A stretch of DNA of 32,000 nucleotides from Nonlabens ponticola (GCF_003966335.1 NZ_CP034549.1:2640001-2672000); one strand, 5' to 3'; shown: positions 4,645 to 29,193, counted from the first letter of the stretch. Program-made: numbers and translations. The notes: generated by a model not told the origin, from the letters alone.

Positions 4645-7600
4645 TTAAAATTTGACATTCATTCCTAGAAGAAACGTTCTAGGTACTGGATAAAAACCTG
4701 GATCAATACCACCACCTATAGGCGCACCACTACTGGCACTAGGATCAAAACCTCTATATTTTGTTAAGGTAAATAGGTTGTTGACGGATCCGTAAAACCT
4801 TACCTCTTCAATATTTTTTCTGGCACCAGCATCATTAAACGTATATCCCAACTGTAGATTCTGCATTCTTAAAAAGGATGCGTCCTCAACAAAGTAATCA
4901 GAGAATATTCTATTGGCAGTTGCTCCGGTTGTCACACGAGGAACTGAATTTGACGTTCCTGGACCAGTCCATCGCGCTAAATCGTTAGTCGTAACGTTTG
5001 TAAGATTCTGACTACGTTCATAATTGCGCACCATATCATTACCGATGGATGCATATAAATAAGTCTGAAAATCAAAATTCCTATAATTAAAGGATAAATT
5101 AAGACCCATGGTAACGTCTGCAATTGGATCACCTATGTTCACACGATCATCTTGATCGATGACACCATCATTGTTTACATCAACAAATCTTATATCACCT
5201 GGCTGGGCGTTAGCTCCCAACGCTATTTGTGATGGATGTGCAGCCACCTCGGCAGCATTTTGAAAAATCCCATCTGTTCTCAAACCGTAGAAATATCCTA
5301 GTGGCTGTCCTTCTTCCATACGGGCTGGTGGTAGTTGACCGATACCGAATTGACCACCTTCTATAAATCCTACCGTGTTATTTACATCTAGAACCTCGTT
5401 ATCAATTACACCTATATTATAATTGACACCATAACTAAATTCATCTGTGATTTCACCATTGTAACCTATCGCAAACTCAAGACCTCTATTGCGCACCGAT
5501 CCACCATTTACCACTGGCGCTCCTGATCCTGGTGCCGCCGCACCTAGAATTCCCGATACGCTGGTTGTGATAAGTAGATCTTCTGTTCTTCTATTAAAAA
5601 CATCAAATGAGGTAGTCAAATTCCCGTCTAGAAAATTTGCATCAATACCAAAGTTAGCTACGTATTGTTCTTCCCACTTAAGCTCTGGATTTGAAATGGT
5701 TCCTGCGGCTGTTCCAAAAACAAGAACGTCATCAAATGGATAGGTCCCTTCACCGTTAAGTAAGGATGTAAAAGCGAATGCCGGTATTCTATCATTACCC
5801 GCGACACCGTAAGAGAATCTCACTTTAAGAAAATCTATCCAATCCTCATCATCCATAAATTCTTCTAACGACGGTACCCAACCAACGCTTGCGCTAGGGA
5901 AAAATCCGTATTTGTTACGCGGACCAAAATTGGAGCTACCATCTCGTCTAGCCTGTGCGGTAAATAGGTATTTATCATCGTAACTGTACCTAAGTCTCAC
6001 GAATTGCGAGAACAGACGTTGATCAAATGTGTCGCCACCGTTTACAAAATTATCTACCACATCTACTGCATTCTCAATGCTGGCATTTGCGATATCATTG
6101 TCTGGTATATCAAATCCAGTAAATCCATTGAACTTTCCTGTTGTTCTAAAGGCAGATATACCCAAGGTGGCTTGTACGTTGTGCACTTTCGCGAAAGCGT
6201 GCTCATAATTGAGATAGGAGTCAAACGTATAATCACGGAAGTAGTTACTGAATGTATTGTAAACGCTGCGCTCGACATTGAAAACTTTACCAGAACCGTA
6301 GAATACCTCTGGAGCAAAACTGTAACCGGAAACTTCGCTGTAGTTGGTCTGGATTCTTGAGGTAAGTTCAAAATCGTTCAAAAAGCTGTAAGTAAGACCA
6401 AAATTACCGCTCACCTTAAGAATGTTTGTCTCGTTGAATGAATTGGCGATTTGAGCTATTGGGTTGATAACCTCATTTCCCAGACCTTCGGCCAGTGAAA
6501 ACTCTCCATCTTCATCTCTAATAGGAATGGTAGGAGCCATGTTGAGAGCATTAAACAATACAGAGCCCAAACCAGATTCATTAATAGCGCGTCTATTGCT
6601 ATAATTGAGAAGAACACCAGTTTTCATTTCTAGATTATCCAACCAGAAATGATCGAAATTCCCTCTAAAAGTGCTGCGCTGGAATTTTGACTTTTCTGCA
6701 CCGACAATTCCATCTTGTAATAAAACAGAAGCACCTGCACCATAGGCTGATTTTTCAGTACCGCCACGTATACCAAGGTTATTGAAAAATATAGGAGCAT
6801 CGTCAAATACCTCATCCTGGTAGTCCACGTCACTCAGCTGTGTAAGATCTGGAAAAGGAATAGGCTCGCCGTTATTTGCAAATGCTTCATTTTTGAGCAA
6901 TGCATATTCTAGTGCATCGAGTGTTGGAAGCTTTCTTGTGGTTTGTTGGAAGCCTACATAAGCGTCATATTCTAGTTTGAGAGGCTGGTTGCGACGCCCA
7001 TTTTTTGTTGTGATAATTACTACACCGTTTGATGCGCGCACACCATAAATAGATGCCGTGGCATCCTTGAGTACTGATATGCTCTCAACATCATTAGGAT
7101 TGATAACACTCAAATCCTCGATGACATTACCATCAACAAGAATAAGTGGTCGCGAATCACCATTTGTCCCTATACCGCGTATTCTTATGTTTGAGGCAGA
7201 ACCTGGCGATCCTGATTGTGAGGTAATCGTTACCCCTGGAACTGTTCCTTGTAGTGCTTGTTCTATCCTAGTAGGCTTTAATTCCTCAATGGTCTCATTA
7301 TTAACAATAGATACTGCGCCTGTCACCTCTCTTACAGCTTGAGTACCATAACCTACGACCACCACTGCATCGAGTCCTGCGACATCTTGTTCTAGATTAA
7401 AAACGAGTGGACTTCCAGTGTACGTTTGACTTTTAGTTTTATAACCAACATATGAAACCACTATCACAGCACCATCATTTGCTGTAATTGTAAACTCACC
7501 GTCAAAGTCTGTTGTTACTGCCGTATTTGTGCCTTTAACTACAACTGTCGCTCCTAGAAGTGGTTCTCCTGTAGTCGCATCTGTGACAGTTCCATTAATT

Positions 7601-7662
7601 GTTTGCTGTGCAAATGAGAGAGAGCCCAGAAGTAAAAAAGTGATGGTAATAAATCTATTCAT
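4645..7662 (-). CDS. susC: SusC-family TonB-dependent outer-membrane transporter
   Basis: 1005 aa. Signal peptide, a carboxypeptidase-regulatory-like N-terminal domain (INGTVTDATTGEPLLGATVVVKG), a TonB-box-like DAVVVVGYG, a plug (SISVLKDATASIYGVRASNGVVIITTK), a long beta-barrel and a C-terminal aromatic residue (...GMNVKF). Confidence 0.95.
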   Translation of the reverse strand: MNRFITITFLLLGSLSFAQQTINGTVTDATTGEPLLGATVVVKGTNTAVTTDFDGEFTITANDGAVIVVSYVGYKTKSQTYTGSPLVFNLEQDVAGLDAVVVVGYGTQAVREVTGAVSIVNNETIEELKPTRIEQALQGTVPGVTITSQSGSPGSASNIRIRGIGTNGDSRPLILVDGNVIEDLSVINPNDVESISVLKDATASIYGVRASNGVVIITTKNGRRNQPLKLEYDAYVGFQQTTRKLPTLDALEYALLKNEAFANNGEPIPFPDLTQLSDVDYQDEVFDDAPIFFNNLGIRGGTEKSAYGAGASVLLQDGIVGAEKSKFQRSTFRGNFDHFWLDNLEMKTGVLLNYSNRRAINESGLGSVLFNALNMAPTIPIRDEDGEFSLAEGLGNEVINPIAQIANSFNETNILKVSGNFGLTYSFLNDFELTSRIQTNYSEVSGYSFAPEVFYGSGKVFNVERSVYNTFSNYFRDYTFDSYLNYEHAFAKVHNVQATLGISAFRTTGKFNGFTGFDIPDNDIANASIENAVDVVDNFVNGGDTFDQRLFSQFVRLRYSYDDKYLFTAQARRDGSSNFGPRNKYGFFPSASVGWVPSLEEFMDDEDWIDFLKVRFSYGVAGNDRIPAFAFTSLLNGEGTYPFDDVLVFGTAAGTISNPELKWEEQYVANFGIDANFLDGNLTTSFDVFNRRTEDLLITTSVSGILGAAAPGSGAPVVNGGSVRNRGLEFAIGYNGEITDEFSYGVNYNIGVIDNEVLDVNNTVGFIEGGQFGIGQLPPARMEEGQPLGYFYGLRTDGIFQNAAEVAAHPSQIALGANAQPGDIRFVDVNNDGVIDQDDRVNIGDPIADVTMGLNLSFNYRNFDFQTYLYASIGNDMVRNYERSQNLTNVTTNDLARWTGPGTSNSVPRVTTGATANRIFSDYFVEDASFLRMQNLQLGYTFNDAGARKNIEEVRFYGSVNNLFTLTKYRGFDPSASSGAPIGGGIDPGFYPVPRTFLLGMNVKF
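6185..6202. repeat. Partial copy (13 of 14 core positions) of the GCTTTCGCGAAAGC palindrome, inside susC
   Basis: actttcgcgaaagcgtgc. The 17-nt stretch ctttcgcgaaagcgtgc (6186-6202) is identical to the copy at 18227-18243. On the coding (minus) strand it reads GCT TTC GCG AAA = Ala-Phe-Ala-Lys (EHAFAKVHN). Confidence 0.7.
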
Positions 7663-7869
7663 CAGTTGATAATTATGATATTGATAAATATAGACTGGTT
7701 AAATTATTAATACAGCAATAGAATCATTACAACATCTCTACATTCTCTTAAAATAGCAAAATCTGCAATTCCTGTACTGTTGTAAAACCCGAAAACAGGC
7801 GCGAACAGTGTGTTTACTAAACCACTACAACGTTTTAGTAACTGGGTCTTTAAGATGCTTTTCAGTAAA

Positions 7870-7891
7870 TGTTGTGGTGATGTTGTGGTAA
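7870..7891. repeat. Tandem direct repeat tgttgtggtga / tgttgtggtaa (2 x 11 bp, 10/11 identical) in the regulator-susC intergenic region
   Basis: Read directly from the sequence. It lies 21-42 nt beyond the regulator stop (7912) and ~210 nt upstream of the susC start (7662). The 11-bp period is about one helical turn. Confidence 0.6.
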
Positions 7892-7911
7892 AATACAGTA
7901 ATGTAGCGCGT

Positions 7912-10704
7912 TTATATAGCTACCAAATATTCAAAAAGGTCAGTTTCCTTATCAAGTTCCATCTTTTTACGCAAACGATAACGCTTAATTTCTACACTGC
8001 GAGGTGAGATATTAAGGAGCGGCGCAATTTCTTTTGAGGATAGATTAAGACGTATGTAGATGCTCAATCTCAAATCTCCTGAAGTCAACGATGGATGCCT
8101 TGCCTTGATGTTTTTAATGAAGGCCTTATCTGTCATGGTAAAGGCTTGTTCAAAGGTTTTCCAGTCTTGACGTTCGGTCATGTTTTTATGGACTAAATCC
8201 TTGACAGCTTTGAGGTTCTTGCTATCATTATTTGCCTGCACTTTTTCCAGCGCTTTTTTGATCTCGCTAAGCGTCTCATTTTTCTTAATCATTGCCATGG
8301 TGGTCATGGCAAGTTCTCTATTACGGGATTCAATATCAGTCGTTAGTTGTTTATTGTTGACCTCTGCTAACTCCTTTTGATTTTTAAGTCTTTCTAGATC
8401 AAGCTCACGTTGCTTCTTTGTCAGCTCAGCCTCTTGTTTCTTATTGTAATACCATTTGTAAAACACATTAATAAGCACAATCAAAAGAATGGCTAACAAA
8501 ATGTAAATGATATAAGCTGCCATTGTGCGATAAATGGGTGGTAATATCTCAAACTCTATACGTGCGGTGCTGCCTACTACACCATTGACAACACTGCGCA
8601 CTTCTAGTTGATAATTATCATCCTCAAGATTTTCAAATATCAATGTGCTTGCAGCTGCTGATACTGACCATTGATCCATATCATCTTTGAGACGATACTG
8701 GTACTTTACGTCTGTTAGGGCGTCATACAACGGTGTATGGTAGTTGACCTCCAATTTGCTCGCATCATGCGGTAATTCAAAGCCATTTTGAATATCGATA
8801 CGTTCCAGCCTGTTATCGTTATAAGTCACCAGGATCTTATCTATGTAAACTAGCGACTGTTTATCCTCAAGTCGCGCTGTATCGAAAATGATGTATCCTT
8901 GAGATGATCCCATGAGATATTGATAATCTGTCAGTTTGAACAAACTCTCATAACCAGTTTTCTCTGCTCTTATTTCCTGCGGTATCGCATAGCGCTCAAA
9001 CTCAAATGTATTTTTTATAGGTTCGACGGTAACTTGTACCAATTGATTTTTCATGAAAAACCAAAACGATTGATCATCCATTGAGATCATTCTGCCAGAA
9101 GTGTACTCATCCTCATCCACCAATGCAGATAATTGCTCGTCTTTTTCAAAAGTGTCCGTATCTGGTTCCTTGACATAGAAACCATTTTTATTAGCATAAA
9201 TCAGGCGGTTTTTGAGCTTTATTAGATCAGAATAAGTGCCTTTACCAACTTCGTCTTTTAATTCTACATTGGTAGCTTTATTAAAATCAGCGTCTAGCGT
9301 TATCTCGAACAAGCCTTTATATTCATGACTTACATAGACTACATTGTCGCGTACAGCAAAATCCTTTGAGCTCACGTCAAATCCTGTAATCTTGTTTCTG
9401 ACCTTCCAGGAACTTCCAATACGCTCGAGCACGTATAAACCATCATAATTTCCTTGCAATAGCAAATTGTCTTGGCCTGGAATTTTTTGAATATCCCATG
9501 AACCGTTGATGCTCGCAATTTGTGTAGCTTGATCCTTACTTATATTAAATGTGCCTTTGTTGTGACCACAAAATAACGTACCATCAATTTCGACAAGGTT
9601 CCATACTTGGCCTTGCGTACCTTCTATAAGTTTAAATGCGTTATCTCTAGCATCACGCAAATACAAACCTTGATTAGTACCTAGATAGGTTTGATCATCC
9701 TTTACAAAGGCATCATACACAGTACCCAATTCGCCTACTCTATCAATAAAAGTGGTGAAACGCGCGTTTATATTTACGTAATCGATACCATTGTCCAGAC
9801 CCAACCATAGATTTCCATCTAGATCTTCGTACATAGAAAGGATCGTGTTGTTGGATAATCCATTGCGCTGATTCAACTGCATCTCAATTGAGCCGTCTTT
9901 TTCAATAAAAAATAATCCACTGTCGATGGTGCCTGCAGCTATTCTACCATCTGACAATATGGTAGCTGAATAAATCACTATATCCTTATCAACCTGATTT
10001 TTTGAAATTAGAGTAACTTCTCTTTCTTCAATGTGGAAAAGCGAATTGGCAGAAGTGATGAACACAATGATATCATCTTGAACAGCCATGGTAATGACAT
10101 TACCATCATCTTGCGACAGGCCGTGAACCAGAATCGAGGCTCCATCCACAATCTCGTAAAGACCATCATTAGCGATGTTATAAAAAACCCTATTTCCTAC
10201 CTTAAAGACTTTGGTTAGTGCTGGGTTTTGTAGAATTACTTCGACAGTTTTTGAATCTGGATCATAAGAATACAAGCGGTCAAGCGACTGTACCAGCAAC
10301 GTGGATCCATTAGGAATCAAGTTCCAGAACTGCTCATCTTCAAGAATATCAACCTCAAGCGTTTCTACAAGTGATGTATATTTTAATGATCCATCTGGTT
10401 GTGATTCCCAAAAACCAAAATCCATATAAGCGCCAGAATATAATCGATCCTCATACCACGCGACAGATCGCATGATACTCTCATTGTAAGTAGGATATAC
10501 TGTCCACTGCTCACCGTTATATTCTAACAATCCAGCACCGTTGGCGAAATACATGCGCCTATCATCAGACTGGGCAATCATCCAGTTTTGATTCTGGGCT
10601 TGGTACTGTGCAGGAGAAAAATTAGAAATAGGTGGCAGCTCTTGAGCCATACCATGGCTCAAACAGATCATGAAATAAAAAAGGAAAAACGTGCAATATT
10701 TCAT
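7912..10704 (-). CDS. Transmembrane one-component PUL regulator: periplasmic beta-propeller plus Y_Y_Y domain, one TM helix, coiled coil, C-terminal LuxR/GerE-type HTH (no histidine kinase or receiver)
   Basis: 930 aa. Signal peptide, repeated propeller-like segments, a Y_Y_Y-like segment (VNYHTPLYDALTDVKYQYRLKDDMDQWS...YQLEVRS) and a TM helix AAYIIYILLAILLIVLINVFYKWY. The C-terminal HTH is LTSGDLRLSIYIRLNLSSKEIAPLLNISPRSVEIKRYRLRKKM. It sits directly upstream of susC. Confidence 0.85.
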   Translation of the reverse strand: MKYCTFFLFYFMICLSHGMAQELPPISNFSPAQYQAQNQNWMIAQSDDRRMYFANGAGLLEYNGEQWTVYPTYNESIMRSVAWYEDRLYSGAYMDFGFWESQPDGSLKYTSLVETLEVDILEDEQFWNLIPNGSTLLVQSLDRLYSYDPDSKTVEVILQNPALTKVFKVGNRVFYNIANDGLYEIVDGASILVHGLSQDDGNVITMAVQDDIIVFITSANSLFHIEEREVTLISKNQVDKDIVIYSATILSDGRIAAGTIDSGLFFIEKDGSIEMQLNQRNGLSNNTILSMYEDLDGNLWLGLDNGIDYVNINARFTTFIDRVGELGTVYDAFVKDDQTYLGTNQGLYLRDARDNAFKLIEGTQGQVWNLVEIDGTLFCGHNKGTFNISKDQATQIASINGSWDIQKIPGQDNLLLQGNYDGLYVLERIGSSWKVRNKITGFDVSSKDFAVRDNVVYVSHEYKGLFEITLDADFNKATNVELKDEVGKGTYSDLIKLKNRLIYANKNGFYVKEPDTDTFEKDEQLSALVDEDEYTSGRMISMDDQSFWFFMKNQLVQVTVEPIKNTFEFERYAIPQEIRAEKTGYESLFKLTDYQYLMGSSQGYIIFDTARLEDKQSLVYIDKILVTYNDNRLERIDIQNGFELPHDASKLEVNYHTPLYDALTDVKYQYRLKDDMDQWSVSAAASTLIFENLEDDNYQLEVRSVVNGVVGSTARIEFEILPPIYRTMAAYIIYILLAILLIVLINVFYKWYYNKKQEAELTKKQRELDLERLKNQKELAEVNNKQLTTDIESRNRELAMTTMAMIKKNETLSEIKKALEKVQANNDSKNLKAVKDLVHKNMTERQDWKTFEQAFTMTDKAFIKNIKARHPSLTSGDLRLSIYIRLNLSSKEIAPLLNISPRSVEIKRYRLRKKMELDKETDLFEYLVAI

Positions 10705-11554: not shown

Positions 11555-11570
11555 AGCTTTCGCGAAAGCT
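11555..11570. repeat. 16-bp perfect palindrome AGCTTTCGCGAAAGCT (core GCTTTCGCGAAAGC)
   Basis: Read directly. It lies in the divergent promoter region, 33 nt upstream of the exonuclease start (11522) and 94 nt upstream of the start at 11664. Confidence 0.9.
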
Positions 11571-13704: not shown

Positions 13705-14843
13705 TCAAAGCTGTTCACGGTATCAATCACTCGTTGCACTTCCTGATCACTTAATAATGGGTGACACGGAATGCTCAGTTGGGTTTTATGCAGTCGTTCT
13801 GTAACGGGAAAATTAAATGCGTTGAATTCAGGATAGACCTCTTGATGATGTGGCGGAATTTTATAATGAAAATTAGTACCGATTCCAGCGGCATCCATAT
13901 GCTGCACCAGTCTACCTCGATCATCAGAATATATTGGGAAAACATGATGCGCATTGTGCTCGATCCATAAAGAATTAGGCACCTGTATTTTTTCATGTTT
14001 GATGCTGGAAATATAGGTTTCTGCGATCTCGCGACGTCTCGCATTGTCTTGATCTAGTAATGGTAAACGATTTGAGAGAAAACCTGCTTGCAAGGGATCC
14101 AATCGCGAGTTCACACCTAGAACGTCATTGACATATCGCGATTCACGACCATAGTTGGCTATTTTCCTGCACATGCTTCCCAGCTCTTCATCATCTGTCA
14201 CGATGGCTCCAGCATCACCTAATGCGCCCAGATTTTTGGTTGGGTAAAAGGAAAAAGCACTGGCTCTGCCGCGTGAGCCAGATCGCATTCCTTGATCGGT
14301 TCTAGCGCCGTGGGCTTGAGCAGCGTCAGTGTAGATGGGTATTTTTTTTGCTTTCGCGCCTGCCTGCCGGTCAGGCAGGAAAGCATACACCTCATCATCC
14401 ACCAGTTTACCATAAATATCTACCGCAATTACTCCATGGATGTTATCTAGCTGGTTCTTGATTTTATCTGCCGTGAGCAGTAATTCATCCACATCTACAG
14501 GAACAGGTATACAGCCTGCATTAGTGATGCTCAAGAATGTTGCGATGTAGGTATGTGCAGGCACCAGAATTCTAGCAGCTTTAGTTAAAACGCCTAACTC
14601 AACATCTGCACGCAGAATGATTTCTAGAGCTTCCAGACCGTTTGCAACGCCTATACAATGTTGGACACCGCAGTATGCGGCAAATTCGTTTTCAAATCGC
14701 GTGACCATATCGCCACCTATGTAGGTGCCACTATCATGCAAATGCTGCATGACGTCAAGATCCTGTTGCAGGAAACGACCTTGCAGGGACTTGAGATCTA
14801 GATATGGGATAGGAGCTGCCATCAAGCGGTTGAAGTTAATCAA
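13701..14843 (-). CDS. DegT/DnrJ/EryC1/StrS-family PLP-dependent sugar aminotransferase (WecE/RffA-like, dTDP-4-amino-4,6-dideoxyhexose type)
   Basis: 380 aa. Family motifs are TDAAQAHGA and the Schiff-base lysine context SFYPTKNLGALGDAG. It carries an extra LPDRQAG segment encoded by the split palindrome at 14350-14384. Confidence 0.85.
   Translation of the reverse strand: MINFNRLMAAPIPYLDLKSLQGRFLQQDLDVMQHLHDSGTYIGGDMVTRFENEFAAYCGVQHCIGVANGLEALEIILRADVELGVLTKAARILVPAHTYIATFLSITNAGCIPVPVDVDELLLTADKIKNQLDNIHGVIAVDIYGKLVDDEVYAFLPDRQAGAKAKKIPIYTDAAQAHGARTDQGMRSGSRGRASAFSFYPTKNLGALGDAGAIVTDDEELGSMCRKIANYGRESRYVNDVLGVNSRLDPLQAGFLSNRLPLLDQDNARRREIAETYISSIKHEKIQVPNSLWIEHNAHHVFPIYSDDRGRLVQHMDAAGIGTNFHYKIPPHHQEVYPEFNAFNFPVTERLHKTQLSIPCHPLLSDQEVQRVIDTVNSFE
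14350..14384. repeat. Split copy of the palindrome: gctttcgcg + 21-nt hairpin (cctgcctg-ccggt-caggcagg) + aaagc, in frame inside the aminotransferase CDS
   Basis: gctttcgcgcctgcctgccggtcaggcaggaaagc. The outer arms gctttc/gaaagc and inner arms cctgcctg/caggcagg are self-complementary. On the coding strand it reads A F L P D R Q A G A K A. Confidence 0.8.
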
Positions 14844-14853
14844 TTAAGAAAAC

Positions 14854-18092: not shown

Positions 18093-18114
18093 AAATAGCG
18101 CTCCTTAGCGGCTG

Positions 18115-18122
18115 CAAAAGTA
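18115..18122 (-). promoter_or_regulatory. Candidate Bacteroidota -7 promoter box (TACTTTTG on the minus strand) for typA
   Basis: Matches the TAnnTTTG consensus. It lies 22 nt upstream of the typA ATG, and a TTG is present ~22 nt further upstream (18145-18147 on the plus strand as caa). Confidence 0.35.
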
Positions 18123-18224
18123 CTCTTATTTATTGGTTTATAGTCAAGTAGGGCGTTAAAGTGGTATTTGTTATAGTTTATTGATTAACAGCTATCTAGT
18201 TTTTTTTGGATTTAGTCAGGATAC

Positions 18225-18240
18225 CGCTTTCGCGAAAGCG
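18225..18240. repeat. 16-bp perfect palindrome CGCTTTCGCGAAAGCG
   Basis: Read directly. It lies 133 nt upstream of the typA start, in the typA / UbiA-like divergent region. Confidence 0.9.
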
Positions 18241-18325
18241 TGCGTGAACAGTTTGTGTTGCAACGATCTAGGATATCAAAACCAATATCCACAGTTTATT
18301 TTTGATTTTCATTTTCTTTTTATTC

Positions 18326-18341
18326 CGCTTTCGCGAAAGCG
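18326..18341. repeat. 16-bp perfect palindrome CGCTTTCGCGAAAGCG
   Basis: Read directly. It lies 136 nt upstream of the UbiA-like gene start (18477) and 101 nt from the copy at 18225. Confidence 0.9.
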
Positions 18342-18476
18342 AAATAGATTCCATCGTACATGCTACTAATAGATTGATGAAGTACAAAAGACCACAGTTT
18401 TCATATATTGCCTATAAAGAGATAGACAATTAAAAACTTCATCGATTACCTTAATGAGCGATTTCCCGTAGTCAAT

Positions 18477-19325: not shown

Positions 19326-21853
19326 TTCAAAAAGCCTATACTAATAACATGGGCGGCAAGGCTCGTGGCCTCTATAGATTGAAAGAGCTAGGATTAGATG
19401 TTCCCGATTTCATAGTGATACCCTATGATGTTTTCAAAAATGTGGTGGAAAGACATAATGATCCTGATATTCTGACACAGCAATTGGAGAAATATAAACT
19501 GGATCAACAAGTGGTAAGCAGGGTTGAAGAAGCTCTAGCGAAATGGGATTTTCCTAATCAAAAGATAGCCGTAAGATCATCCATTCTAGATGAGGATGGT
19601 AGCGATCATTCCTTTGCTGGTATGATGGACAGTTATTTAAATCTCTATGATAGAGAGAGTGTGTTTGAAGCAATAAAGAAGTGTGCGGCAAGTGCCTATT
19701 CACATCGATCCATCACTTACCGCGAGGAGAACGAGTTGCCCTCACGAGCACGTCCAGCAGTCCTCGTACAAAAACAGATCAACGCAACGGCCAGCGGCGT
19801 GATTTTCACGACGTCGCCTATTTATCCTCAAGAGGTTGCCATACACATGGCGCAAGGCCTGGGCGACAAATTGGTGAGCGGTCAAGTAGCGGCAGATGAG
19901 TTTTATTACTTGAAAAAATCTGGGAAATTACACCGCTGCATGACCACCGATAATCTAGATTTCAATAATGATATATTAGAAGATCCGTCTAGTAGAGAAG
20001 ATAATGACACGATAGGCACATTGCCTGATTATGTTCATCAGGATTTGTTGGATTACGCTTTCGCGAAAGCGGAACAGATAGAAGCCTTATACGGTCCTAG
20101 TGACATTGAGTTTTGTATAAAAGATGACCAATTCTATTTTCTACAATTAAGACCTATTACGACCAAGATTCCCGATGTCACCGTGTTTGATAATTCAAAC
20201 ATTCAAGAAAGTTATTGCGGTGTGACCACACCATTGACGTTTTCATTTGCGACACGTGCCTATGGTACTGTTTATAAGCAAACAATGAAAGTGGTAGGCA
20301 TCAACCAGCGGACGATTGACGACTATCAAAACGTACTCAATAATTTGCTGGCGCTTAGAAAAGGTCGCATTTATTACAACATCAATAACTGGTATCGCGG
20401 CCTGCAGCTGTTGCCATCCTTTAGCCAAAACAAGGAAGACATGGAGGCAATGATGGGACTGGAAGAGCCTGTGGATTTTGTAATTGACACCAAAAAAAGT
20501 TGGCGAGAAAAAATACAATTACTGCCGTCGCTTATTCTGAATCTGTCGCGATTACTGCTTGAATTTAAACGCCTTAAAAAACGTACCGAGCGCTTTAAAC
20601 ACGATTTTAATGAGGTGTATCGCAACTTTTATCGTGACTCAAATCCTTCGGTATCATTGCAAGAGTTCATTAAACGCCGTCATCAATTAGATGAATTATT
20701 GTATCAATGGGACGTGCCTATCATCAACGACTTTAAGGTCATGATGAGCAATGGTAAGGTAAAACGGGCATTGGAAAGCATAGGTATCAAGAAAACGGAA
20801 GCTTTTCTAGCCCTTTATTTATCAAATGATCATGAGATTGAAAGTGCCTTTCCTACCAGACTTATGATTGATCTAGCAAGCGAAGTTGATCGTGATCCAG
20901 AGTTATGTAAACTTATAAAAGCCTTACCTCAAGAATTGCATCATCAAATTAAAGCTAGCTATCCAGAATTTTATTTGAAGGTAGAAGATTTTATGGATAG
21001 ATATGGTGATCGCACTATTGGCGAACTGAAGCTTGAGACTATCACCATGCGGGTTCAACCTCAAATTTTCTATCAATACCTTAAAAACTTATTCGGCTAC
21101 CACAGTATTGATAAAGCTCCACAAAATTTACAGGATACAGCAAAGAAAGAGCTGGTGGAAGCCCTAGATGGTAAGTCCTTTTTTACAAAGCGATCTGTCA
21201 TTAATAAGCTCCATCAATTACAGGATAGCATTAGACGTCGCGAAAGTTTGCGACTGGACCGTACCAGGTTATTCGGTATGTATAGAACTCTTTATAGACA
21301 GTATGCCTCGCATCTAAAGAATCAAGATTTTATTGATCAAATAGATGATATATTCTACCTGACAGAAGATGAATTGATCAATGATCAACAAGATCATTTC
21401 AAAGAGCTTATCACAGAACGTCAAGGCCTTTTTGAATCATATGAATCTCAAGAAGTACCATCTCGTATTGTCCAGCCATATCCACCGGTAGGAAATGAAA
21501 AGCCTAAACTTGATGACAATGAATTAATGGGTCAAGGTTGTCATCCTGGTGAGGCAACTGGCGAGGTTCTCGTTATCACAAATCCTACAGATGATTTGAA
21601 TGTCAAAGACAAAATCATAGTCGCTCAACGTACTGATCCTGGATGGTGTGCGTTATTTCCATCTTGCCGTGCTGTCATTATTGAAAAAGGAAGCATGCTT
21701 TCCCATTCGGTTATCTTACTACGTGAATTAGGAATTCCAACGATTATCAATGTACCTGCGGTGACTAAAATCTTGAAAACCGGTCAAGAAATTAAAATGA
21801 ATGGCAGTACTGGCCACATTCAAATAATACAGAGAACTACTAAGAATGATTGA
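19322..21853 (+). CDS. PEP/pyruvate-binding (PPDK_N ATP-grasp) plus C-terminal PEP-utilising swivel-His domain protein; rifampicin-phosphotransferase-like architecture, substrate unknown
   Basis: 843 aa. The N-terminus GGKARGLYRLKELGLDVPDFIVIP resembles PPDK_N. The extreme C-terminus RTDPGWCALFPSCRAVIIEKGSMLSHSVILLRELGIPTIINV is a mobile phosphohistidine domain (His795, nt 21704-21706). No TIM-barrel PEP/pyruvate domain follows it. ATGA overlap with the upstream gene. Confidence 0.8.
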   Translation: MIQKAYTNNMGGKARGLYRLKELGLDVPDFIVIPYDVFKNVVERHNDPDILTQQLEKYKLDQQVVSRVEEALAKWDFPNQKIAVRSSILDEDGSDHSFAGMMDSYLNLYDRESVFEAIKKCAASAYSHRSITYREENELPSRARPAVLVQKQINATASGVIFTTSPIYPQEVAIHMAQGLGDKLVSGQVAADEFYYLKKSGKLHRCMTTDNLDFNNDILEDPSSREDNDTIGTLPDYVHQDLLDYAFAKAEQIEALYGPSDIEFCIKDDQFYFLQLRPITTKIPDVTVFDNSNIQESYCGVTTPLTFSFATRAYGTVYKQTMKVVGINQRTIDDYQNVLNNLLALRKGRIYYNINNWYRGLQLLPSFSQNKEDMEAMMGLEEPVDFVIDTKKSWREKIQLLPSLILNLSRLLLEFKRLKKRTERFKHDFNEVYRNFYRDSNPSVSLQEFIKRRHQLDELLYQWDVPIINDFKVMMSNGKVKRALESIGIKKTEAFLALYLSNDHEIESAFPTRLMIDLASEVDRDPELCKLIKALPQELHHQIKASYPEFYLKVEDFMDRYGDRTIGELKLETITMRVQPQIFYQYLKNLFGYHSIDKAPQNLQDTAKKELVEALDGKSFFTKRSVINKLHQLQDSIRRRESLRLDRTRLFGMYRTLYRQYASHLKNQDFIDQIDDIFYLTEDELINDQQDHFKELITERQGLFESYESQEVPSRIVQPYPPVGNEKPKLDDNELMGQGCHPGEATGEVLVITNPTDDLNVKDKIIVAQRTDPGWCALFPSCRAVIIEKGSMLSHSVILLRELGIPTIINVPAVTKILKTGQEIKMNGSTGHIQIIQRTTKND
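20056..20071. repeat. 16-bp perfect palindrome CGCTTTCGCGAAAGCG inside the PEP-utilising enzyme CDS
   Basis: Read directly. GCT at 20057 is in frame (codon 246), so it reads Ala-Phe-Ala-Lys-Ala within DYAFAKAEQ. Confidence 0.9.
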
Positions 21854-22907
21854 GCGGAAAGTTTATGAAAAAGGTACAGTAGTAGATCAACCATGGGCAG
21901 ATCTATATGAGGTGGTTTATGGCGAGTTGGAATTTAAACCTGATGAGCCTGCTCATGTTACTCAGTGGCTTTTTAATCACTATGCATCTAGCAATGATAT
22001 CATTGTTTACAAAGCTACAGGTAGTTTGAGCCTTGTGGGAATTTTTCCACATGGATCTGATACTGCTTATTTCGGCTATTGGGAAACCATCAATGATCTT
22101 GATCTTAACCAGCAAGCATTTAAACTGCTGGAAGAGGATGCTTTAAGACAAGATTATACCAGCGTGGTAGGACCATTACATTTTAATACATATCATCGAT
22201 ATAGGCTGCGATTAGGATCAGTACCTAGTTGGAAAATGTTTGATAAAGAACCCGTAAATCCTACATACTATCCAGAAATTATGGAACAATTAGGGTACCG
22301 CATCAAAAACACTTTTCAAAGCCATTGTTTATCTCATGAGGTAATTGAGCAAATGTATGAGGTGGCAAAGTCATTGAGTAAACAACAAGTTCCAGAAGAA
22401 ATTATAATCAGCCAACTGGATAAATCCTTATGGCTAAAGTATGCTGATCAGATATTTGAACTAACGTCTCAAATCTTTTCTGGCAATGCAAACTATAGTG
22501 GCGTTACAAGAGCCGAATTTGATTTGCAATACAATGCTGCGTTTGCGGCTGGTCTGTGCCCGCATTCCTCAAGCTTGCTTATCGATACCGTAAATGATAG
22601 ACTAGCTGCGTTAAGTTTATGCCTGCCTAATTACCATGGTTTAGAAACATCAACTCCTGTGTATGAAGATGATTATGCATCGCTGCAACAGCCTACTTTA
22701 CTTGCTAAAACCGTAGGCGTGCATCCAGATTATAGAGGACAAAACTTAATGAATGCTATGGGTATGTATGGAAGTGCTGGTTTTATAAATAGGTACGATC
22801 AAGTAATTTTTTGCTTGATGAAAGAAGATAATGCATCGCAAAATTTCACTAAATATCTTAAGAAAGAAACAGCATTGTATGGATTGTTTGAAAAATCAAT
22901 TGGTTAA
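21846..22907 (+). CDS. GNAT-like acyltransferase-fold protein with a large N-terminal extension, function unknown
   Basis: 353 aa. The C-terminal stretch TVGVHPDYRGQNLMNAMGMYG resembles the GNAT acyl-CoA-binding motif A (R/Q-x-x-G-x-G/A). It overlaps the upstream gene by 8 nt. The family call is tentative. Confidence 0.45.
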   Translation: MIERKVYEKGTVVDQPWADLYEVVYGELEFKPDEPAHVTQWLFNHYASSNDIIVYKATGSLSLVGIFPHGSDTAYFGYWETINDLDLNQQAFKLLEEDALRQDYTSVVGPLHFNTYHRYRLRLGSVPSWKMFDKEPVNPTYYPEIMEQLGYRIKNTFQSHCLSHEVIEQMYEVAKSLSKQQVPEEIIISQLDKSLWLKYADQIFELTSQIFSGNANYSGVTRAEFDLQYNAAFAAGLCPHSSSLLIDTVNDRLAALSLCLPNYHGLETSTPVYEDDYASLQQPTLLAKTVGVHPDYRGQNLMNAMGMYGSAGFINRYDQVIFCLMKEDNASQNFTKYLKKETALYGLFEKSIG

Positions 22908-24038
22908 ATAATCCTCGCAAAATTGATCAAGTAAAAAATAGGTCTGGTAAACGCGTTCCAAAAATGGATAAGGAGTAATCTTGTGAGCCATAGTATACAA
23001 ACCTAATCTGTGCAGCGCAAATTGAGATGCAGCAAGTTGTAGTGTCCCGACAAATTCTGGTAACTCTTGTGGATAGTCGTAGTTAACATTGAGATGCTCG
23101 TGATAACGATTGATCAGGGTTTCTATCTCACCTTTTCTATCTGCGGTGATTGCAAAACAAATAAATTCTGCAAGATCATAGTGAGGTATGTGCATAGTTG
23201 CCAGTTCCCAATCATAAAGCAATAAGCTATCATTTTTAATACAGCAATTGCGCAGGTTGCAATCATTATGAATGATTGTTTTGGGCAATTCATCTAATCC
23301 TGCGTAAAGTTGAGGTATCTTCTCTAAGTATCTCTCAAGAACAATGCATTGCTCTGACGTGATCAAATTAAGATCTCGCGAATTGTTCAATAGACTAGAT
23401 AGGACAGGTTTTATTTTCTTGTAAAAATTAGAGCTAGGTAAATCATACTGCCATTCATTATCTATCAATCGATCAGCGAGATGCAAAGCATCACCATGCC
23501 AACTAGCTAGATCTATGATGGCGCTGGACAAGTCATTATGTGTCCATACTTCTGGCTGCATGACCGTGTTGAGATTTTGCTGCGCGTACAGATCTTCCAT
23601 AAGTATCATGAATATCCCTTGTTTTTCATCGCGATGCGTACCATAAATAGTTGGCATAACAGCGTGTGTTACATGCTCATATAAGTACAATTCCTTGAAA
23701 TGACTGTTTTCAAATCCCATTAAAGTAGCATACGCTGGATACACGTCCTTTAAAGGCGATGAGGAAAGTTGAGATAGTCCAGTTAGCATTTCAGATGTTT
23801 CAGAGCCAAAGGTCTTTACCTTGAGAACCATTTTTTGTTTCTGAGGCTCTTGGTTTATGCGGTAATCTACACTATAGCCAAAGTGCCCAACCGATAATCC
23901 TTGCTGTGACTGATTAAGCGATGTTAGAATACTTGATGAATTATCAATCGCATAAGGCTCAAGCGATAATATCTTAACCTTTTTTTCCAATCTATCACTC
24001 ATCATTTGTGCGATGAAATTTTTGGAAATCTCTATCAA
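22896..24038 (-). CDS. APH/choline-kinase/EcKL-type small-molecule kinase (phosphotransferase enzyme family)
   Basis: 380 aa. The catalytic loop is HNDCNLRN (aa 257-264, nt 23247-23270, verified by back-translation). The metal-binding motif is DWE (aa 276-278). There is a VLKVK lysine strand (aa 71-75) and a hinge-like ILMEDL (aa 145-150). Confidence 0.75.
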   Translation of the reverse strand: MIEISKNFIAQMMSDRLEKKVKILSLEPYAIDNSSSILTSLNQSQQGLSVGHFGYSVDYRINQEPQKQKMVLKVKTFGSETSEMLTGLSQLSSSPLKDVYPAYATLMGFENSHFKELYLYEHVTHAVMPTIYGTHRDEKQGIFMILMEDLYAQQNLNTVMQPEVWTHNDLSSAIIDLASWHGDALHLADRLIDNEWQYDLPSSNFYKKIKPVLSSLLNNSRDLNLITSEQCIVLERYLEKIPQLYAGLDELPKTIIHNDCNLRNCCIKNDSLLLYDWELATMHIPHYDLAEFICFAITADRKGEIETLINRYHEHLNVNYDYPQELPEFVGTLQLAASQFALHRLGLYTMAHKITPYPFLERVYQTYFLLDQFCEDYLTN

Positions 24039-25165
24039 AAAGCTGTCATTTTTTCCAGTTCGTGTACTCTAGCAGGATCTGGATGGATTTGAAGCACACG
24101 CTTGTTTAAAAAATAGAAACATGCAGTCGTTGCGATACACTGATATTGAAGCCTTGCCTCCATCTCCGCATCAGACTGGCGAGTAATTTGTTGATCCTGA
24201 AGCAAGTTCCAATACACAAGCTTTAAAGACCGTGATCGGGAGAACAACTGTGATACGGCAGATTGAAAATCTGCAGGACTTACGTATTCAAAAATGTTTG
24301 ATAGTGAGGCTTTGGTAACTTCTTGCCCTGGCGCAGAATTCAAGTAATGCATTGCTTCATCCTTAACCACAGTGACTTTATGAACTTGTCTGGCAATGGT
24401 ATCAAAATTTTGTTCCTGATAACATGCTGGCCATAAATGAGGATCGATATTCTCGCAACCGTACATGAAGAACCTTGAATAAAAGTTATGGTTCAGTAAT
24501 TCAACTTTTGAATGTTCTAGTAATCGCTCATAAAACACTTCTCCTGTCGATTGACTCGTATAAGTGAAGAGCTTTGGGTCACGTCCTTGTGACAAATTGT
24601 TCTTATTAAAATAGCTGATGAATAATTCCTTGAATGCAGAATTGTCCAGTTCATCAATAAAAAAATCGGCTTGTTGTGATAATTCTTCAAATTTGAACAA
24701 CTTATCTACTTTAGGCTTTAGATCAACTGGTAGTGATTCATAGAATCCGTGTATATATCTTTCCAGCCTACCCGATTCCATCACCTTATCACCTGTGGTT
24801 TTGAAAAACGCCTTTGTCCATTCTAGCAAGTCCTTATCCATAGTCGCTGACAGGATTTGTATCACTTGCTCTTGCGATATTTTATTAGACAAACCCAAGA
24901 AAGAAGTCAATAATTCGTGATTGTGGTACTGGTATATGTGCAACTTAACCCTTAGTAATTGATTTTGATGCTCATTGACATCAACCGCAGTTACACTTTG
25001 TGGCTCGTCCAGCAAAGCATTAAGTGCATTACATCCAGCCGATGTAATGACCAGCACGTGATCCTGTGTATTGATGTCAAGTGCACGCCGCATGTTATCG
25101 CCACTTTCCCATATCATGGAATAACGCAATTGATCTAGATCTATATTAGAAAAAGCTGACTTCAT
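24035..25165 (-). CDS. BtaA-like / DUF3419-family protein (putative S-adenosylmethionine 3-amino-3-carboxypropyl transferase)
   Basis: 376 aa. The N-terminal LRYSMIWESGDNMRRALDINTQDHVLVITSAGCNALNALLDEPQSVTAVDVNEHQNQLLRVKL matches the pattern I remember for BtaA/DUF3419 (WED...D.VL.I.SAGCNAL...L...P..V.AVD.N..Q..LL.LK). It has 4-nt overlaps with both neighbours. Confidence 0.65.
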   Translation of the reverse strand: MKSAFSNIDLDQLRYSMIWESGDNMRRALDINTQDHVLVITSAGCNALNALLDEPQSVTAVDVNEHQNQLLRVKLHIYQYHNHELLTSFLGLSNKISQEQVIQILSATMDKDLLEWTKAFFKTTGDKVMESGRLERYIHGFYESLPVDLKPKVDKLFKFEELSQQADFFIDELDNSAFKELFISYFNKNNLSQGRDPKLFTYTSQSTGEVFYERLLEHSKVELLNHNFYSRFFMYGCENIDPHLWPACYQEQNFDTIARQVHKVTVVKDEAMHYLNSAPGQEVTKASLSNIFEYVSPADFQSAVSQLFSRSRSLKLVYWNLLQDQQITRQSDAEMEARLQYQCIATTACFYFLNKRVLQIHPDPARVHELEKMTAF

Positions 25166-26562
25166 AAGTCATTATAACGAATTTTGGACAAATGTCTTGC
25201 ATCTACTGGCAGAAATGGATGTTTCTCGACGAGAATCGACTGTATATCGATAATTTTTGTCAAGCAATCAATTACTCGATTACTAGATGCAAATCCAGAG
25301 AAATGGATGCTTGCCTTATTGGGATAAATGATTACTCCAACTTGCGATATTTCTAGCTTGGATAATAAATAATGCTCTATTTGATATGCATAATATCCAC
25401 CGTAGGTCATGGCATTATCCTTGCGCGCAACTAGATATAGCTCGTTATTTAAAAGATATCCGTAGTCACCGGTGTGATAAGACGACTTACTAATCACATG
25501 TTTCCCAGAGACCACGATCTCTCCTATAATGTCGCCATCACCGTTTTTCACCGCGTCATCCTCAATAATTTCAAGCTCGATATCTGGATGAATGGTTCCT
25601 ACACAGTAGCCTAAAAGTGGATCAAGCGATGCATTGTATTCTTTTACTGCTATGGGCTCTGCCTCGGTAGATCCGTAGATGACGTACAATTGAGCGTATT
25701 GAAATGCAATTGATACTCTATCCAGTAATTTGTTAGGGACTGGAGAACCGCCTATACCAATCATTCTTACAGTAGAAACATCAAACTCTCCATCGCTGGA
25801 TTTTTCTATACAATCCAACAGATGTGTAAAATAAAACACATTACCCGTCAATCTAGTCACGCCATGTCGCATGATTTGCTTGAGAATCCTCTCTGGCTCA
25901 AGGTTCTCTAGTTTCCAATCAGGTATATCTGGTACGACCGTTGTCACTCCAGCATTGAGATTATGCAAAAGCAGGTTAGGAAAAAGAGGTAAATCGATCT
26001 CGTCGTCTTGAGGATAAAATATCTTTAGAATAGCCTCGTGCTGGTTGATAAGATCTTGGTGGGTACGCTGGATAGGCTTACTCACATCAGTACTGCCAGA
26101 CGTATGCGATATGAGAGCTAATGTATCACCATCCAGAACCTTAAGTTTAAAAAATCTATTTTTTGAAAGAGCTATTCCTTGCAGCATTTGAATACCTAGA
26201 CTATTACAAAGTACCCTAATGAGAAAATTGTTAGAATCAAGTATCAAATATCTGATTTTGTGATTCCAAATAAATGATAGCAAATGCCACTTAGAACTTT
26301 GACGAGGTAAACTCGTGAGTGCGACACCTTGATGCAAACTCGCTAGGATAACATGCAAATTTTTATTTGAAATACTAGACATTGGCAGTGCGAGCGAATT
26401 TTTCACGGTACCCAGTGAATTAAAGTAACTCTCAAAAGAAATAACTCTATCAGCCAATTGCCCGTATGTCAATTCTAGAATAGCTGGATTTGGCCAGATA
26501 ATCGCCGTCTTTTGAGCATGCTTTACAGCTAGGTCAAAGAAAGTAGCAAGGAGGTTGGGCAT
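25162..26562 (-). CDS. Adenylate-forming enzyme (ANL superfamily: acyl/aryl-CoA ligase or stand-alone adenylation enzyme), short form
   Basis: 466 aa. Motifs are ISHTSGSTDVSKP (variant of TSGSTGxPK), YGSTE, GEIVVSG, YHTGDYGYL, VARKDN..YGGYYAYQIE and a C-terminal HLSKIRY lysine. Confidence 0.8.
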   Translation of the reverse strand: MPNLLATFFDLAVKHAQKTAIIWPNPAILELTYGQLADRVISFESYFNSLGTVKNSLALPMSSISNKNLHVILASLHQGVALTSLPRQSSKWHLLSFIWNHKIRYLILDSNNFLIRVLCNSLGIQMLQGIALSKNRFFKLKVLDGDTLALISHTSGSTDVSKPIQRTHQDLINQHEAILKIFYPQDDEIDLPLFPNLLLHNLNAGVTTVVPDIPDWKLENLEPERILKQIMRHGVTRLTGNVFYFTHLLDCIEKSSDGEFDVSTVRMIGIGGSPVPNKLLDRVSIAFQYAQLYVIYGSTEAEPIAVKEYNASLDPLLGYCVGTIHPDIELEIIEDDAVKNGDGDIIGEIVVSGKHVISKSSYHTGDYGYLLNNELYLVARKDNAMTYGGYYAYQIEHYLLSKLEISQVGVIIYPNKASIHFSGFASSNRVIDCLTKIIDIQSILVEKHPFLPVDARHLSKIRYNDL

Positions 26563-26754
26563 AGGTATTTAAAAGTAGTGCGTTCAATGTACAATTTATT
26601 TAATGGCCGTCATTGTAAGATGAGATCGAGCTAGGTTACAAATCGACAATAAGGATCGATGTTACTATCATTAATTTAGAAATTGGTGCCTGTCAATGAT
26701 CTCAATCCGTTTCATAGCCACGCAATTTCCTTGTTCATTAGTAAGTTTTCAGTA

Positions 26755-26770
26755 CGCTTTCGCGAAAGCG
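26755..26770. repeat. 16-bp perfect palindrome CGCTTTCGCGAAAGCG
   Basis: Read directly. It lies in the divergent region, 193 nt upstream of the adenylating-enzyme start (26562) and 179 nt upstream of the HAD ATG (26949). Confidence 0.9.
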
Positions 26771-27572: not shown

Positions 27573-27655
27573 CAACTAGATTGTTAGCCTGTACGATAGC
27601 CGTAATATCCTTTGCAGTGATGTGTAGACTTTAGGCATATAAGCTTTCTTGCCTG

Positions 27656-28516: not shown

Positions 28517-28534
28517 TGATTAATTAAAATTGCT

Positions 28535-28571
28535 AAATGCCTTTTTGAATTTCTTCAAAAAGGCATTTTTT
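28535..28571. terminator. Strong hairpin terminator between convergent genes (15-bp perfect stem)
   Basis: aaatgcctttttgaa (28535-28549), loop tttc, ttcaaaaaggcattt (28554-28568), then T-run to 28571. It lies 19 nt after the FKBP stop. On the minus strand the trailing T-run is weaker (AGCAATTTTA). Confidence 0.8.
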
Positions 28572-28693
28572 ATACAGCAATTTCAAGTTTACAGATTTTG
28601 AAAGTCGCTTTGTGCTGCTCCTAGTGGACTGATTGATTCTATATCAATAACCATTTATCGCAGCTGGTCAACAACCCTAAACCATAAACTTTT

Positions 28694-29071
28694 TCAACAG
28701 GTCTTTTCCGCTAGAAGTCGCTGTACTTTGAAGACGTCAACAGCTTTAGAAAATTTCTTGCTTACGCTGGGCAGATTCTCACTGGATATCCAGATCTTAA
28801 GCTCTGCATCGCGGTCAAAAGTACCTGCTGTTTCTAATGAGAATCGTGATATGCTCTTGTAAGGCATGGATTTCATCTCGATCTTTTTACCCGTCAAGCC
28901 TTGCTTGTCAATCAATAACAAGCGTTTTGAAGTAAAAATAAACGTATCTCTAAACAGGATAAATCCCATCTCAATATTCTCACTATCAATAAGCAAGTGA
29001 CCGTATTCCTTTTGTAATTCATCAAGCGACACCTCGCCAGCGTTGCCCAACATTTTATCTAACAATCCCAT
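28694..29071 (-). CDS. Bacterial pleckstrin-homology (bPH, YokE-like) domain protein
   Basis: 125 aa. MGLLDKMLGNAGEVSLDELQKEYGHLL...FTSKRLLLIDKQGLTGKK...SIPYKSISRFSLETAG pattern is typical of bPH-domain proteins. Confidence 0.6.
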   Translation of the reverse strand: MGLLDKMLGNAGEVSLDELQKEYGHLLIDSENIEMGFILFRDTFIFTSKRLLLIDKQGLTGKKIEMKSMPYKSISRFSLETAGTFDRDAELKIWISSENLPSVSKKFSKAVDVFKVQRLLAEKTC

Positions 29072-29178
29072 AGTTTTAATTTTCCGATTTTAATAAGATA
29101 AGACTAATTCAAGAACTAAATCTAGACTTTATTCTACCATTATCCTTATTTATCTTGTTCATGGGTTAGTTGTAATTA

Positions 29179-29193
29179 CGCTTTCGCGAAAGC
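29179..29193. repeat. Palindrome copy CGCTTTCGCGAAAGC (14-bp core perfect)
   Basis: Read directly. It lies in the divergent region, 108 nt upstream of the bPH gene start (29071) and 99 nt upstream of the ffh start (29292). It shares the left flank attaCGCTTTCGCGAAAGC with the copy at 20052-20070. Confidence 0.9.

Follow-up and report, generated by a model that had tools for sequence, protein, structure and literature searches.

The subject of this study is a perfect 14-nucleotide (nt) palindrome, GCTTTCGCGAAAGC, which is scattered over a stretch of 32,000 nt of the Nonlabens ponticola chromosome (GCF_003966335.1, NZ_CP034549.1:2640001-2672000), hereafter called the window (GC content 0.40). 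A pattern search found the exact word six times, at starts 11556, 18226, 18327, 20057, 26756 and 29180, and in four of these copies (18226, 18327, 20057 and 26756) it extends to the 16-mer CGCTTTCGCGAAAGCG, both observations being in agreement with an earlier, sequence-only reading of the same DNA. The gene context of the window was obtained from a listing of open reading frames (ORFs), Pfam scans and a codon-based gene caller. The copy at 11556-11569 is found in a divergent gap, 33 nt upstream of the start of a gene for an RNase T/ExoX-like exonuclease, with a small ORF on the other side. Two copies, at 18226-18239 and 101 nt further on at 18327-18340, share the divergent gap between typA and a UbiA-like gene, while those at 26756-26769 and 29180-29193 occupy the divergent gaps between an AMP-binding enzyme and a HAD hydrolase and between a small gene (125 aa) and ffh, respectively. 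The remaining exact copy, at 20057-20070, lies within a gene for a PEP/pyruvate-binding protein (PPDK_N and PEP-utilizers domains), where it is read in the frame Ala-Phe-Ala-Lys-Ala. Paired copies about 90-100 nt apart in one gap, as at 18226-18340, were also seen in a tile of an unrelated Nonlabens metagenome-assembled genome (MAG) (L099, 5296-5397).

Degenerate forms of the word are present as well. A copy with one mismatch, ACTTTCGCGAAAGC, which differs by an outer-edge CpG-to-CpA change, is located at 6185-6198 within the gene of a SusC-like TonB-dependent receptor and shares 17 nt, CTTTCGCGAAAGCGTGC, with the 18226 copy, as had been noted before. An intragenic copy with two mismatches, ACTTTCGCGGAAGC, at 2454-2467, may be a decayed word or a chance match. 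Together with the six exact copies this makes eight matches, compared to a mean of 0.10 and a maximum of 1 in dinucleotide-preserving shuffles of the window, so that the over-representation previously claimed is indeed far beyond chance. Furthermore, the split copy described at 14350-14384 proved to be real. It lies within a DegT/DnrJ aminotransferase gene and is interrupted at 14359-14379 by a 21-nt GC-rich hairpin, CCTGCCTGCCGGTCAGGCAGG, which remains in frame and adds the seven residues LPDRQAG (YAF-LPDRQAG-AKAK, aligned with YAF-------AKAK), the intact orthologue being found at position 5138 of L165, a locus of Nonlabens MAG-97. No second CCTGCCTGCCGGTCAGGCAGG hairpin and no other split copy was found in the ~1.3 Mb of loci examined. 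The two mismatched copies fall within a polysaccharide-utilisation-type block on the minus strand (1109-10704), and these 10 kb hold degenerate copies only. The block encodes a PKD/CBM-like lipoprotein, the SusD-like and SusC-like proteins of a SusC/SusD pair and a protein of 930 aa whose C-terminal domain is of the LuxR type (of the Y_Y_Y type in the L165 annotation).

The five intergenic copies of the window occupy four gaps, all of them divergent. Given that divergent gaps make up ~44% of the intergenic DNA of the window, the placement of 5/5 copies there (p ~0.02) is only modestly unlikely, and it is treated here as a sampling accident. A GTTCAT box was also observed 17-18 nt to the left of the core in three of the six copies, at 20033-20038, 26733-26738 and 29157-29162, and as cttGTTCAT in two of them. 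At that offset none of the ~480 other half-sites has the box, nor does the orthologous copy of L165, and it was rejected as part of an extended element; its presence reflects either chance after multiple testing or an exchange of flanks among copies within the genome.

In order to establish how widely the word occurs, the 16-mer was searched for in 185,579 species-representative genomes cut into 8-kb tiles, and at least 120 tiles matched. Among the 120 matches listed, ~107 belong to Dokdonia, Nonlabens (including strain BBFL7) or other Flavobacteriaceae MAGs, 7 to other Bacteroidota (Saprospiraceae, Aquimarina, Leeuwenhoekiella and Flavobacterium) and 6 to high-GC genomes from outside the Bacteroidota, with a single copy each. 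The same matches include tiles at 0.88, 1.38, 2.15 and 2.82 Mb of one Dokdonia sp. R86516 chromosome and at 0.71, 0.75, 1.33 and 1.42 Mb of Asnod2-E02. Hence the copies form neither a local cluster nor an array close to the origin, and a parS or centromere-like origin cluster was rejected on the basis of tiles 0.5-2 Mb apart on single chromosomes. Two or three copies in one tile are common; according to a zero-truncated Poisson fit the 16-mer has a density of 0.75 per 8 kb, to which further 14-mers add 0.39 per 8 kb, and the loci that were not chosen by the motif (the window, L165 and L168, the last being a more distant relative) contain 16 exact copies in 77 kb. The overall density is therefore about one 14-mer per 5-7 kb, and from the tile fit and the motif-independent loci we estimate several hundred copies per 3-Mb genome. 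A metagenome scan for relatives of the PPDK-like gene returned four distant high-GC loci, none with the motif. In full-text searches of open-access papers and preprints we found no description of the 14-mer or of any over-represented palindrome in Dokdonia, Nonlabens or flavobacteria, nor any description of TCGCGA methylation in flavobacteria.

The gene context of the word was next assessed in a larger sample, made up of the window and 114 flavobacterial tiles of 8 kb (850 kb in all), with 194 exact copies. More than half of the copies, 115/194 (59%), are within called genes, while co-directional gaps hold 49, convergent gaps 7 and divergent gaps 14, of which the window contributes 5. Per kb this corresponds to 0.155 copies in coding DNA and to 0.86, 0.82 and 0.75 copies in co-directional, divergent and convergent gaps, with overlapping confidence intervals between the gap types. 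Thus the comparison that the sequence-only reading had called for shows a ~5-fold enrichment in intergenic DNA and no preference for divergent gaps, and its observation that intergenic copies always separate divergent genes stands for the window but not elsewhere. Within co-directional gaps the copies lean toward the upstream gene (mean relative position 0.35, p = 4e-4), with 22 of 49 no more than 20 nt from the upstream stop codon where 8.3 were expected. Over the whole sample the distance from a copy to a start codon varies between 3 and 740 nt. The gene annotations of L165 and L168 show the same mixed context. All three reading frames are used by the 115 coding copies, which encode Ala-Phe-Ala-Lys-Ala (72 copies), Arg-Phe-Arg-Glu-Ser (24) or Leu-Ser-Arg-Lys (19), and these are found at all positions along genes, several of them in the AFA region of signal peptides.

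It is the whole word, and not a part of it, that is enriched. The full 14-mer was observed 194 times in this sample against 0.002 expected under an order-2 Markov model. Once the full word is masked, TCGCGA is counted 96 times against 73 expected (1.3x), CGCG reaches 0.8x and the half-site GCTTTCG 0.9x, so that an enrichment driven by TCGCGA, CGCG or the half-site is rejected. Some partial words do exceed expectation after masking, for instance TTTCGCGAAA (18 against 1.2), and these are read as decayed copies. Degenerate forms are nevertheless scarce: in distinct contexts there are 239 exact 14-mers against 13 core variants with one mismatch, the ratio is 16:2 in the motif-independent loci, and 42 of the 55 one-mismatch variants of the 16-mer differ at the outermost base. 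None of the 21 two-mismatch variants is a compensatory change that keeps the palindrome, and loop and stem are equally invariant. This means that the identity of the sequence is preserved and not its pairing.

The word is surrounded by an extended consensus, TTaC-GCTTTCGCGAAAGC-GtAA, which weakens with distance from the core. Beyond it a compositional signature appears: read outward, the strand on both sides is poor in G and rich in A and C, with 8-10% G at positions 6-20 compared to a background of 19%, and the (C-G)/(C+G) skew is +0.44 to +0.53 at positions 6-20, +0.2 at positions 21-30 and zero past ~40. This skew is found on either side of coding copies, whichever of the three frames they use, as well as around intergenic copies, and the six copies of the window display it too (G 9%). 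A also shows a weak phase, at positions 3/4, 7, 10 and 13 read outward, which is clear in frame-0 and intergenic copies but not in the smaller classes. The earlier view that the conserved unit is the palindrome itself, and not a longer mobile element, holds, while its statement that flank conservation ends by 2-4 nt is incomplete, as a symmetric compositional signature extends ~30 nt on each side. Since the shifts are both G-to-A-like and T-to-C-like, the flanks are not a simple footprint of deamination. A hidden longer inverted repeat was also rejected, the mirror positions of a copy's own flanks being no more complementary than those of mismatched flank pairs.

With single-stranded DNA parameters the 22-nt consensus folds into a 9-bp hairpin of -7.3 kcal/mol, but for the natural contexts of 74 nt the advantage in folding over shuffles is nil or modest. 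An intrinsic terminator was rejected, given that the 5' flank is rich in T and G and the 3' flank in A and C, which is the reverse polarity, and that no T-run follows the hairpin; a terminator scan gave matches that are not associated with the copies, a weak one overlapping the 18226 copy only. Matches to a sigma-70-type promoter were no commoner than in shuffles, although this model does not fit Bacteroidota promoters. No Rfam family matched at any copy in the window. The window does contain a Flavo-1 RNA (Rfam RF01705; 16146-16232, plus strand; 47.7 bits against a gathering score of 42), which is unrelated to the copies and lies in the gap between a GNAT-like gene and typA, on the strand opposite to both.

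Conservation at orthologous positions was examined first of all with L165, which is syntenic with the window from 10.7 to 26.6 kb. Four of the five copies in this region are kept, 11556, 18226 and 26756 corresponding to L165:2310, L165:8939 and L165:17463, while the fourth is the coding copy at 20057; the 17463 copy is about as far from the start of the AMP-binding gene as its counterpart in the window. Only 1.4% of aligned 14-mers are identical between the two loci, against which 4/5 has a binomial p of ~2e-7, and in the intergenic alignments the word appears as an identical island amid diverged DNA. The 18327 copy, on the other hand, is absent from the orthologous gap and is an example of turnover. 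L168 has only the coding copy in common with the window and carries four copies of its own, which indicates that sites turn over while their density persists. More broadly, 82 of 108 orthologous comparisons, which are partly redundant and include tile pairs biased by the fact that both members were picked by the motif, are identical at the site even when the 50 flanking bases are only 38-48% identical. Most of the non-identical partners are variants by one to a few bases, such as GCTTTTGCGAAAGC, GCTTTCGCAAAAGC or TTGCAA for TCGCGA, and the commonest alternative states are CpG transitions. Among the same comparisons an insertion was seen only at the split copy of the window and an unrelated, gapped sequence only in one pair of loci (L052/L113).

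The origin of one coding copy, that at 20057, could be traced. L165 and L168 have the same 14 bases here, whereas their proteins share 57-60% identity with that of the window and the adjacent codons differ at both synonymous and non-synonymous positions. In 27 homologues that are 45-52% identical, AFAKA aligns without gaps to VFATAQ, IFEKAQ or LFALGQ, from which it follows that the word in this PPDK-like protein arose by substitution and not by insertion. At ~20010-20045, 13-18 residues upstream of the copy, there is a five-residue insertion specific to N. ponticola that overlaps two small hairpins, TAGGCACATTGCCTG and CCTGATTATGTTCATCAGG; this palindromic indel may be a repair scar. Together with the split copy this makes two N. 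ponticola coding copies that have a lineage-specific small hairpin insertion in or beside the word, out of the three for which L165 allows a comparison.

The neighbourhood of these orthologous copies shows two further features. A six-gene cluster is kept in synteny in three flavobacterial lineages (window 18477-26562, L165 9156-17260, L168 9132-17234) and encodes a UbiA-family prenyltransferase, the PPDK_N/PEP-utilizers enzyme, a 353-aa protein, an EcKL/APH-type kinase, a DUF3419 protein and an AMP-binding enzyme; these genes probably specify the biosynthesis of a small molecule or lipid. In L165 the place of the HAD hydrolase gene of the window is taken, at 17736-22517, by a cas9 (HNH/RuvC, 1401 aa) and cas1 locus, and a one-mismatch copy of the palindrome is found within cas9 at 20797.

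The 16-mer is also present in 40 IMG/VR stretches, some of these contigs holding 3-6 copies. One prophage-like contig (L150), whose nearest isolate is Cellulophaga phage phi39:1, has three copies along with genes for tape-measure, major head, portal and head-tail adaptor proteins, and one of its copies is shared with a relative of 64% identity, despite flanks that are only 38-42% identical. The Nonlabens phages P12024S and P12024L (L169 and L170; 35.7 kb each and closely related in gene order), on the contrary, have no copy within two mismatches, although a host-like density predicts ~5 (P(0) ~0.006). Thus the word would accumulate in chromosome-resident DNA, and replication in the host does not require it. 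Both phages are also devoid of TCGCGA, for which base composition predicts ~3.7 sites per genome, and each encodes a DNA methyltransferase; this absence is a weak hint of restriction-site avoidance and, given the close relationship of the two genomes, counts as a single observation.

Among known repeats the closest likeness is with HIP1 (GCGATCGC, Highly Iterated Palindrome 1) of cyanobacteria, likewise a lineage-specific, GC-rich and hugely over-represented perfect palindrome, which occurs in all coding frames and in non-coding DNA, is conserved at orthologous positions above background and has an unsettled function (PMC5861425, PMC4390886). The flavobacterial word equally is a perfect palindrome over-represented by orders of magnitude in coding and non-coding DNA, with positional conservation above background (4/5 against 1.4%). 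The element nonetheless differs from HIP1 in length, fold enrichment, inner 6-mer, flank signature and phylum: HIP1 has 8 bp, occurs up to once per gene, is 15-300-fold enriched and is tied to CGATCG and GATC methyltransferases, while the word described here has 14-16 bp, occurs once per 5-7 kb, is enriched about 10^5-fold, contains a TCGCGA that is not enriched alone, is bordered by a 30-nt strand-symmetric skew and belongs to the Bacteroidota.

A second likeness is with the uptake signal sequences (USS) of Pasteurellaceae and the DNA uptake sequences (DUS) of Neisseriaceae. These are present in hundreds to thousands of exact copies per clade, mostly genic yet enriched in intergenic DNA and often just downstream of genes, and they are made by substitution, sit in tolerant reading frames and have a core with a weaker flank consensus. 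The word resembles them in being a clade-specific exact sequence in high copy number, with a majority of copies in genes, intergenic enrichment, an origin by substitution, an extended flank consensus and a position near gene ends. However, USS and DUS are asymmetric 9-12-mers at ~1 per kb with a shown uptake bias, whereas the word is a perfect palindrome, ~5 times rarer, and occurs in genera that are not known to show competence or an uptake bias. Chi has a comparable density (~1 per 5 kb) and is likewise specific to a clade, marking self DNA for recombination, but it is an oriented word of 5-8 nt read on single-stranded DNA, while here the word is symmetric and its half-sites are not enriched. 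ParB/Noc-type sites (parS, TGTTNCACGTGAAACA; Noc-binding sites, NBS, ATTTCCCGGGAAAT) are 14-16-bp perfect palindromes with TTTC...GAAA arms and a dimeric reader, both genic and intergenic; there are few parS sites, all close to the origin, and ~70 degenerate NBS, as opposed to several hundred exact copies around the chromosome, and the TTTC arms are 2 bp closer in the word, which gives a different geometry. Repetitive extragenic palindromic (REP) sequences and the bacterial interspersed mosaic elements (BIME) linked to RAYT transposases are also short palindromic repeats in hundreds of copies, and intergenic copies of the word tend, like them, to lie near gene 3' ends. REP and BIME, however, are extragenic, imperfect, 20-40 nt long, often clustered and marked by a conserved 5' tetranucleotide, while 59% of the copies described here are intragenic, and the word is perfect, loop-less, mostly solitary and flanked by TTaC/GtAA instead of GTAG. 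The REP-like structural element that the sequence-only reading had listed is therefore very unlikely.

Taken together, a word that is confined to a clade, dispersed, written by substitution into genes in every frame, commoner where constraint is low, conserved yet turning over and enriched only as a whole argues for an iterated word instead of an operator, REP, mini-transposon, terminator, parS site or RNA motif. In our view the word is likely to be an iterated palindrome of the HIP1/uptake-sequence class, spread over the whole genome and specific to the Nonlabens/Dokdonia lineage of the Flavobacteriaceae, and not a gene-specific operator. The kind of explanation that still fares best is an uptake or recognition sequence, or a target for a DNA enzyme, both of which the sequence-only reading had put forward.

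Also proposed in that reading was an operator linked to divergent promoters, which deserves attention in the more general form of a site that a global regulator of transcription or a nucleoid-associated protein would bind mainly at promoters, the intragenic copies being tolerated noise. A perfect 14-16-bp palindrome suits a dimeric helix-turn-helix protein, and the intergenic enrichment, the divergent gaps of the window and the conservation of intergenic copies between N. ponticola and Nonlabens MAG-97 are in agreement with it. Nevertheless, most copies are coding and these are conserved too, the three types of gap are equally dense, the distance to start codons varies widely, co-directional copies favour the 3' end of the upstream gene and not the downstream start, and the genes next to the copies share no theme. 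A regulon is, moreover, not expected to comprise several hundred near-identical sites per genome and hardly any degenerate ones, and L168 has only one of the five window sites in the region it covers, none of the promoter-gap copies being kept. Such an operator is therefore improbable. We also judge unlikely that the word is a functionless by-product of biased mutation or repair, for instance of a methylation-linked repair of the very-short-patch type that converts near-matches, a model proposed for HIP1 by Elhai (PMC4390886). The vast excess of exact copies over one-mismatch neighbours, the origin of copies by point substitution, the CpG transitions among alternative states and a flank skew on the ~30-nt scale of a short repair patch could all be expected from it. 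On the other hand, neither TCGCGA nor CGCG is enriched outside the full word, a specificity of 14-16 bp far exceeds that of any known methyltransferase or Vsr site, and the two-way base shifts of the flanks give no simple deamination signature. In addition, positions are conserved over ~40% protein divergence, and for HIP1 Xu et al. took such conservation as evidence of selection and not of replenishment (PMC5861425).

Two explanations that see in the copies a structure or an insertion have less in their favour. An RNA-level element, in which a hairpin GCUUU-CGCG-AAAGC with a G/U-rich 5' and an A/C-rich 3' side would serve mRNA processing or stability as REP does, would profit from a symmetry that gives the same structure in transcripts of either strand, from the clustering of co-directional-gap copies just past stop codons and from the predicted stability of the consensus hairpin. 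It is very unlikely, however, since no double mismatch is compensatory, the loop is as invariant as the stem, the flanks have no site-specific complementarity, most copies are coding and use all frames, and both an Rfam match and the T-run of a terminator are missing. A miniature mobile or REP-like element spread by insertion would account for the many identical copies, for a consensus that fades away from the core and for the GTTCAT box to the left of three window copies. We regard it as hardly tenable: the coding copy aligns to distant homologues with no indel, alternative orthologous states are single-base variants and not empty sites, the majority of copies is intragenic, terminal repeats, target duplications and a GTAG-type REP signature are all absent, and GTTCAT recurs neither in the other 480 half-sites nor in the L165 orthologue.

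An iterated word of the HIP1/uptake-sequence class has to face several objections of its own. Its function rests on analogy, and both analogies are imperfect: known uptake sequences are non-palindromic and ~5 times denser, and HIP1 has 8 bp with a methyltransferase site, while the inner 6-mer is not enriched here. No report of natural competence in Nonlabens or Dokdonia was found in the literature. The genes of the tiles were called by a simple in-house caller, and the copy numbers per genome are estimates and not whole-genome counts. The tiles were, furthermore, picked for holding the 16-mer, which biases both the ratio of exact to variant copies and the statistics of tile ortholog pairs, although loci chosen by synteny, which are free of this selection, give an exact:variant ratio of 8:1 and 4/5 sites kept.

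As to what the iterated word does, the need for the whole 14-16 bp, the lack of compensatory changes and the twofold symmetry of core and flanks make it most likely that a symmetric, homodimeric protein of long footprint reads it in duplex form. Given that sites are individually dispensable while their density is maintained, and that prophage-like contigs differ from the P12024 phages, the process served is most likely chromosome-wide. The role that we tentatively prefer, by analogy and with roughly one chance in three, is that the word would mark or favour conspecific DNA in uptake or homologous recombination. This is favoured by the parallels with USS and DUS in gene context and copy origin, by the contrast between prophage-like contigs and P12024, by the reported enhancement of natural transformation by HIP1 (bioRxiv 10.1101/2024.09.10.611283) and by the self-DNA preference of Riemerella columbina, which its authors place in the Flavobacteriaceae (PMC7965970) and which is the only such precedent that we found in the class. 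Nucleoid organisation, which has been proposed as a role for HIP1 (PMC5861425), is the next option.

A more specific form of this role, which we hold to be possible though rather doubtful, is that the palindrome is the first 'self-DNA' signal described in Bacteroidota, that is, the site of a symmetric DNA receptor or nuclease for conspecific DNA. The word might also be cleaved at its centre, TCG|CGA, and the receptor or nuclease would direct such DNA toward uptake or homologous recombination. The polarity of the symmetric flanks agrees with this, in that a central break followed by 5' resection would leave G/T-rich, C-poor strands as the two 3' tails. RecA prefers G/T-rich, C-poor strands. The small hairpin insertions at coding copies could then be break-repair scars.

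For practical purposes the word offers a near-diagnostic marker for the binning of Nonlabens and Dokdonia DNA and of their prophages, and motif-finding tools will keep taking it for a regulatory site. The symmetric flank signature constrains the footprint of the reader, for which it predicts a length of about 70 bp, and the proposal is testable by pull-down with one 22-mer (TTACGCTTTCGCGAAAGCGTAA), by methylome data, by uptake and recombination assays and by phylogenetic profiling. If the word acts as HIP1 reportedly does in transformation, it could improve the genetic tools for these bacteria. More than thirty years after the description of HIP1, palindromes of its kind still lack an explanation, and the papers on HIP that we found deal with cyanobacteria only; the palindrome of Nonlabens and Dokdonia would be an independent second case, longer and far more specific, in cultivable marine flavobacteria.

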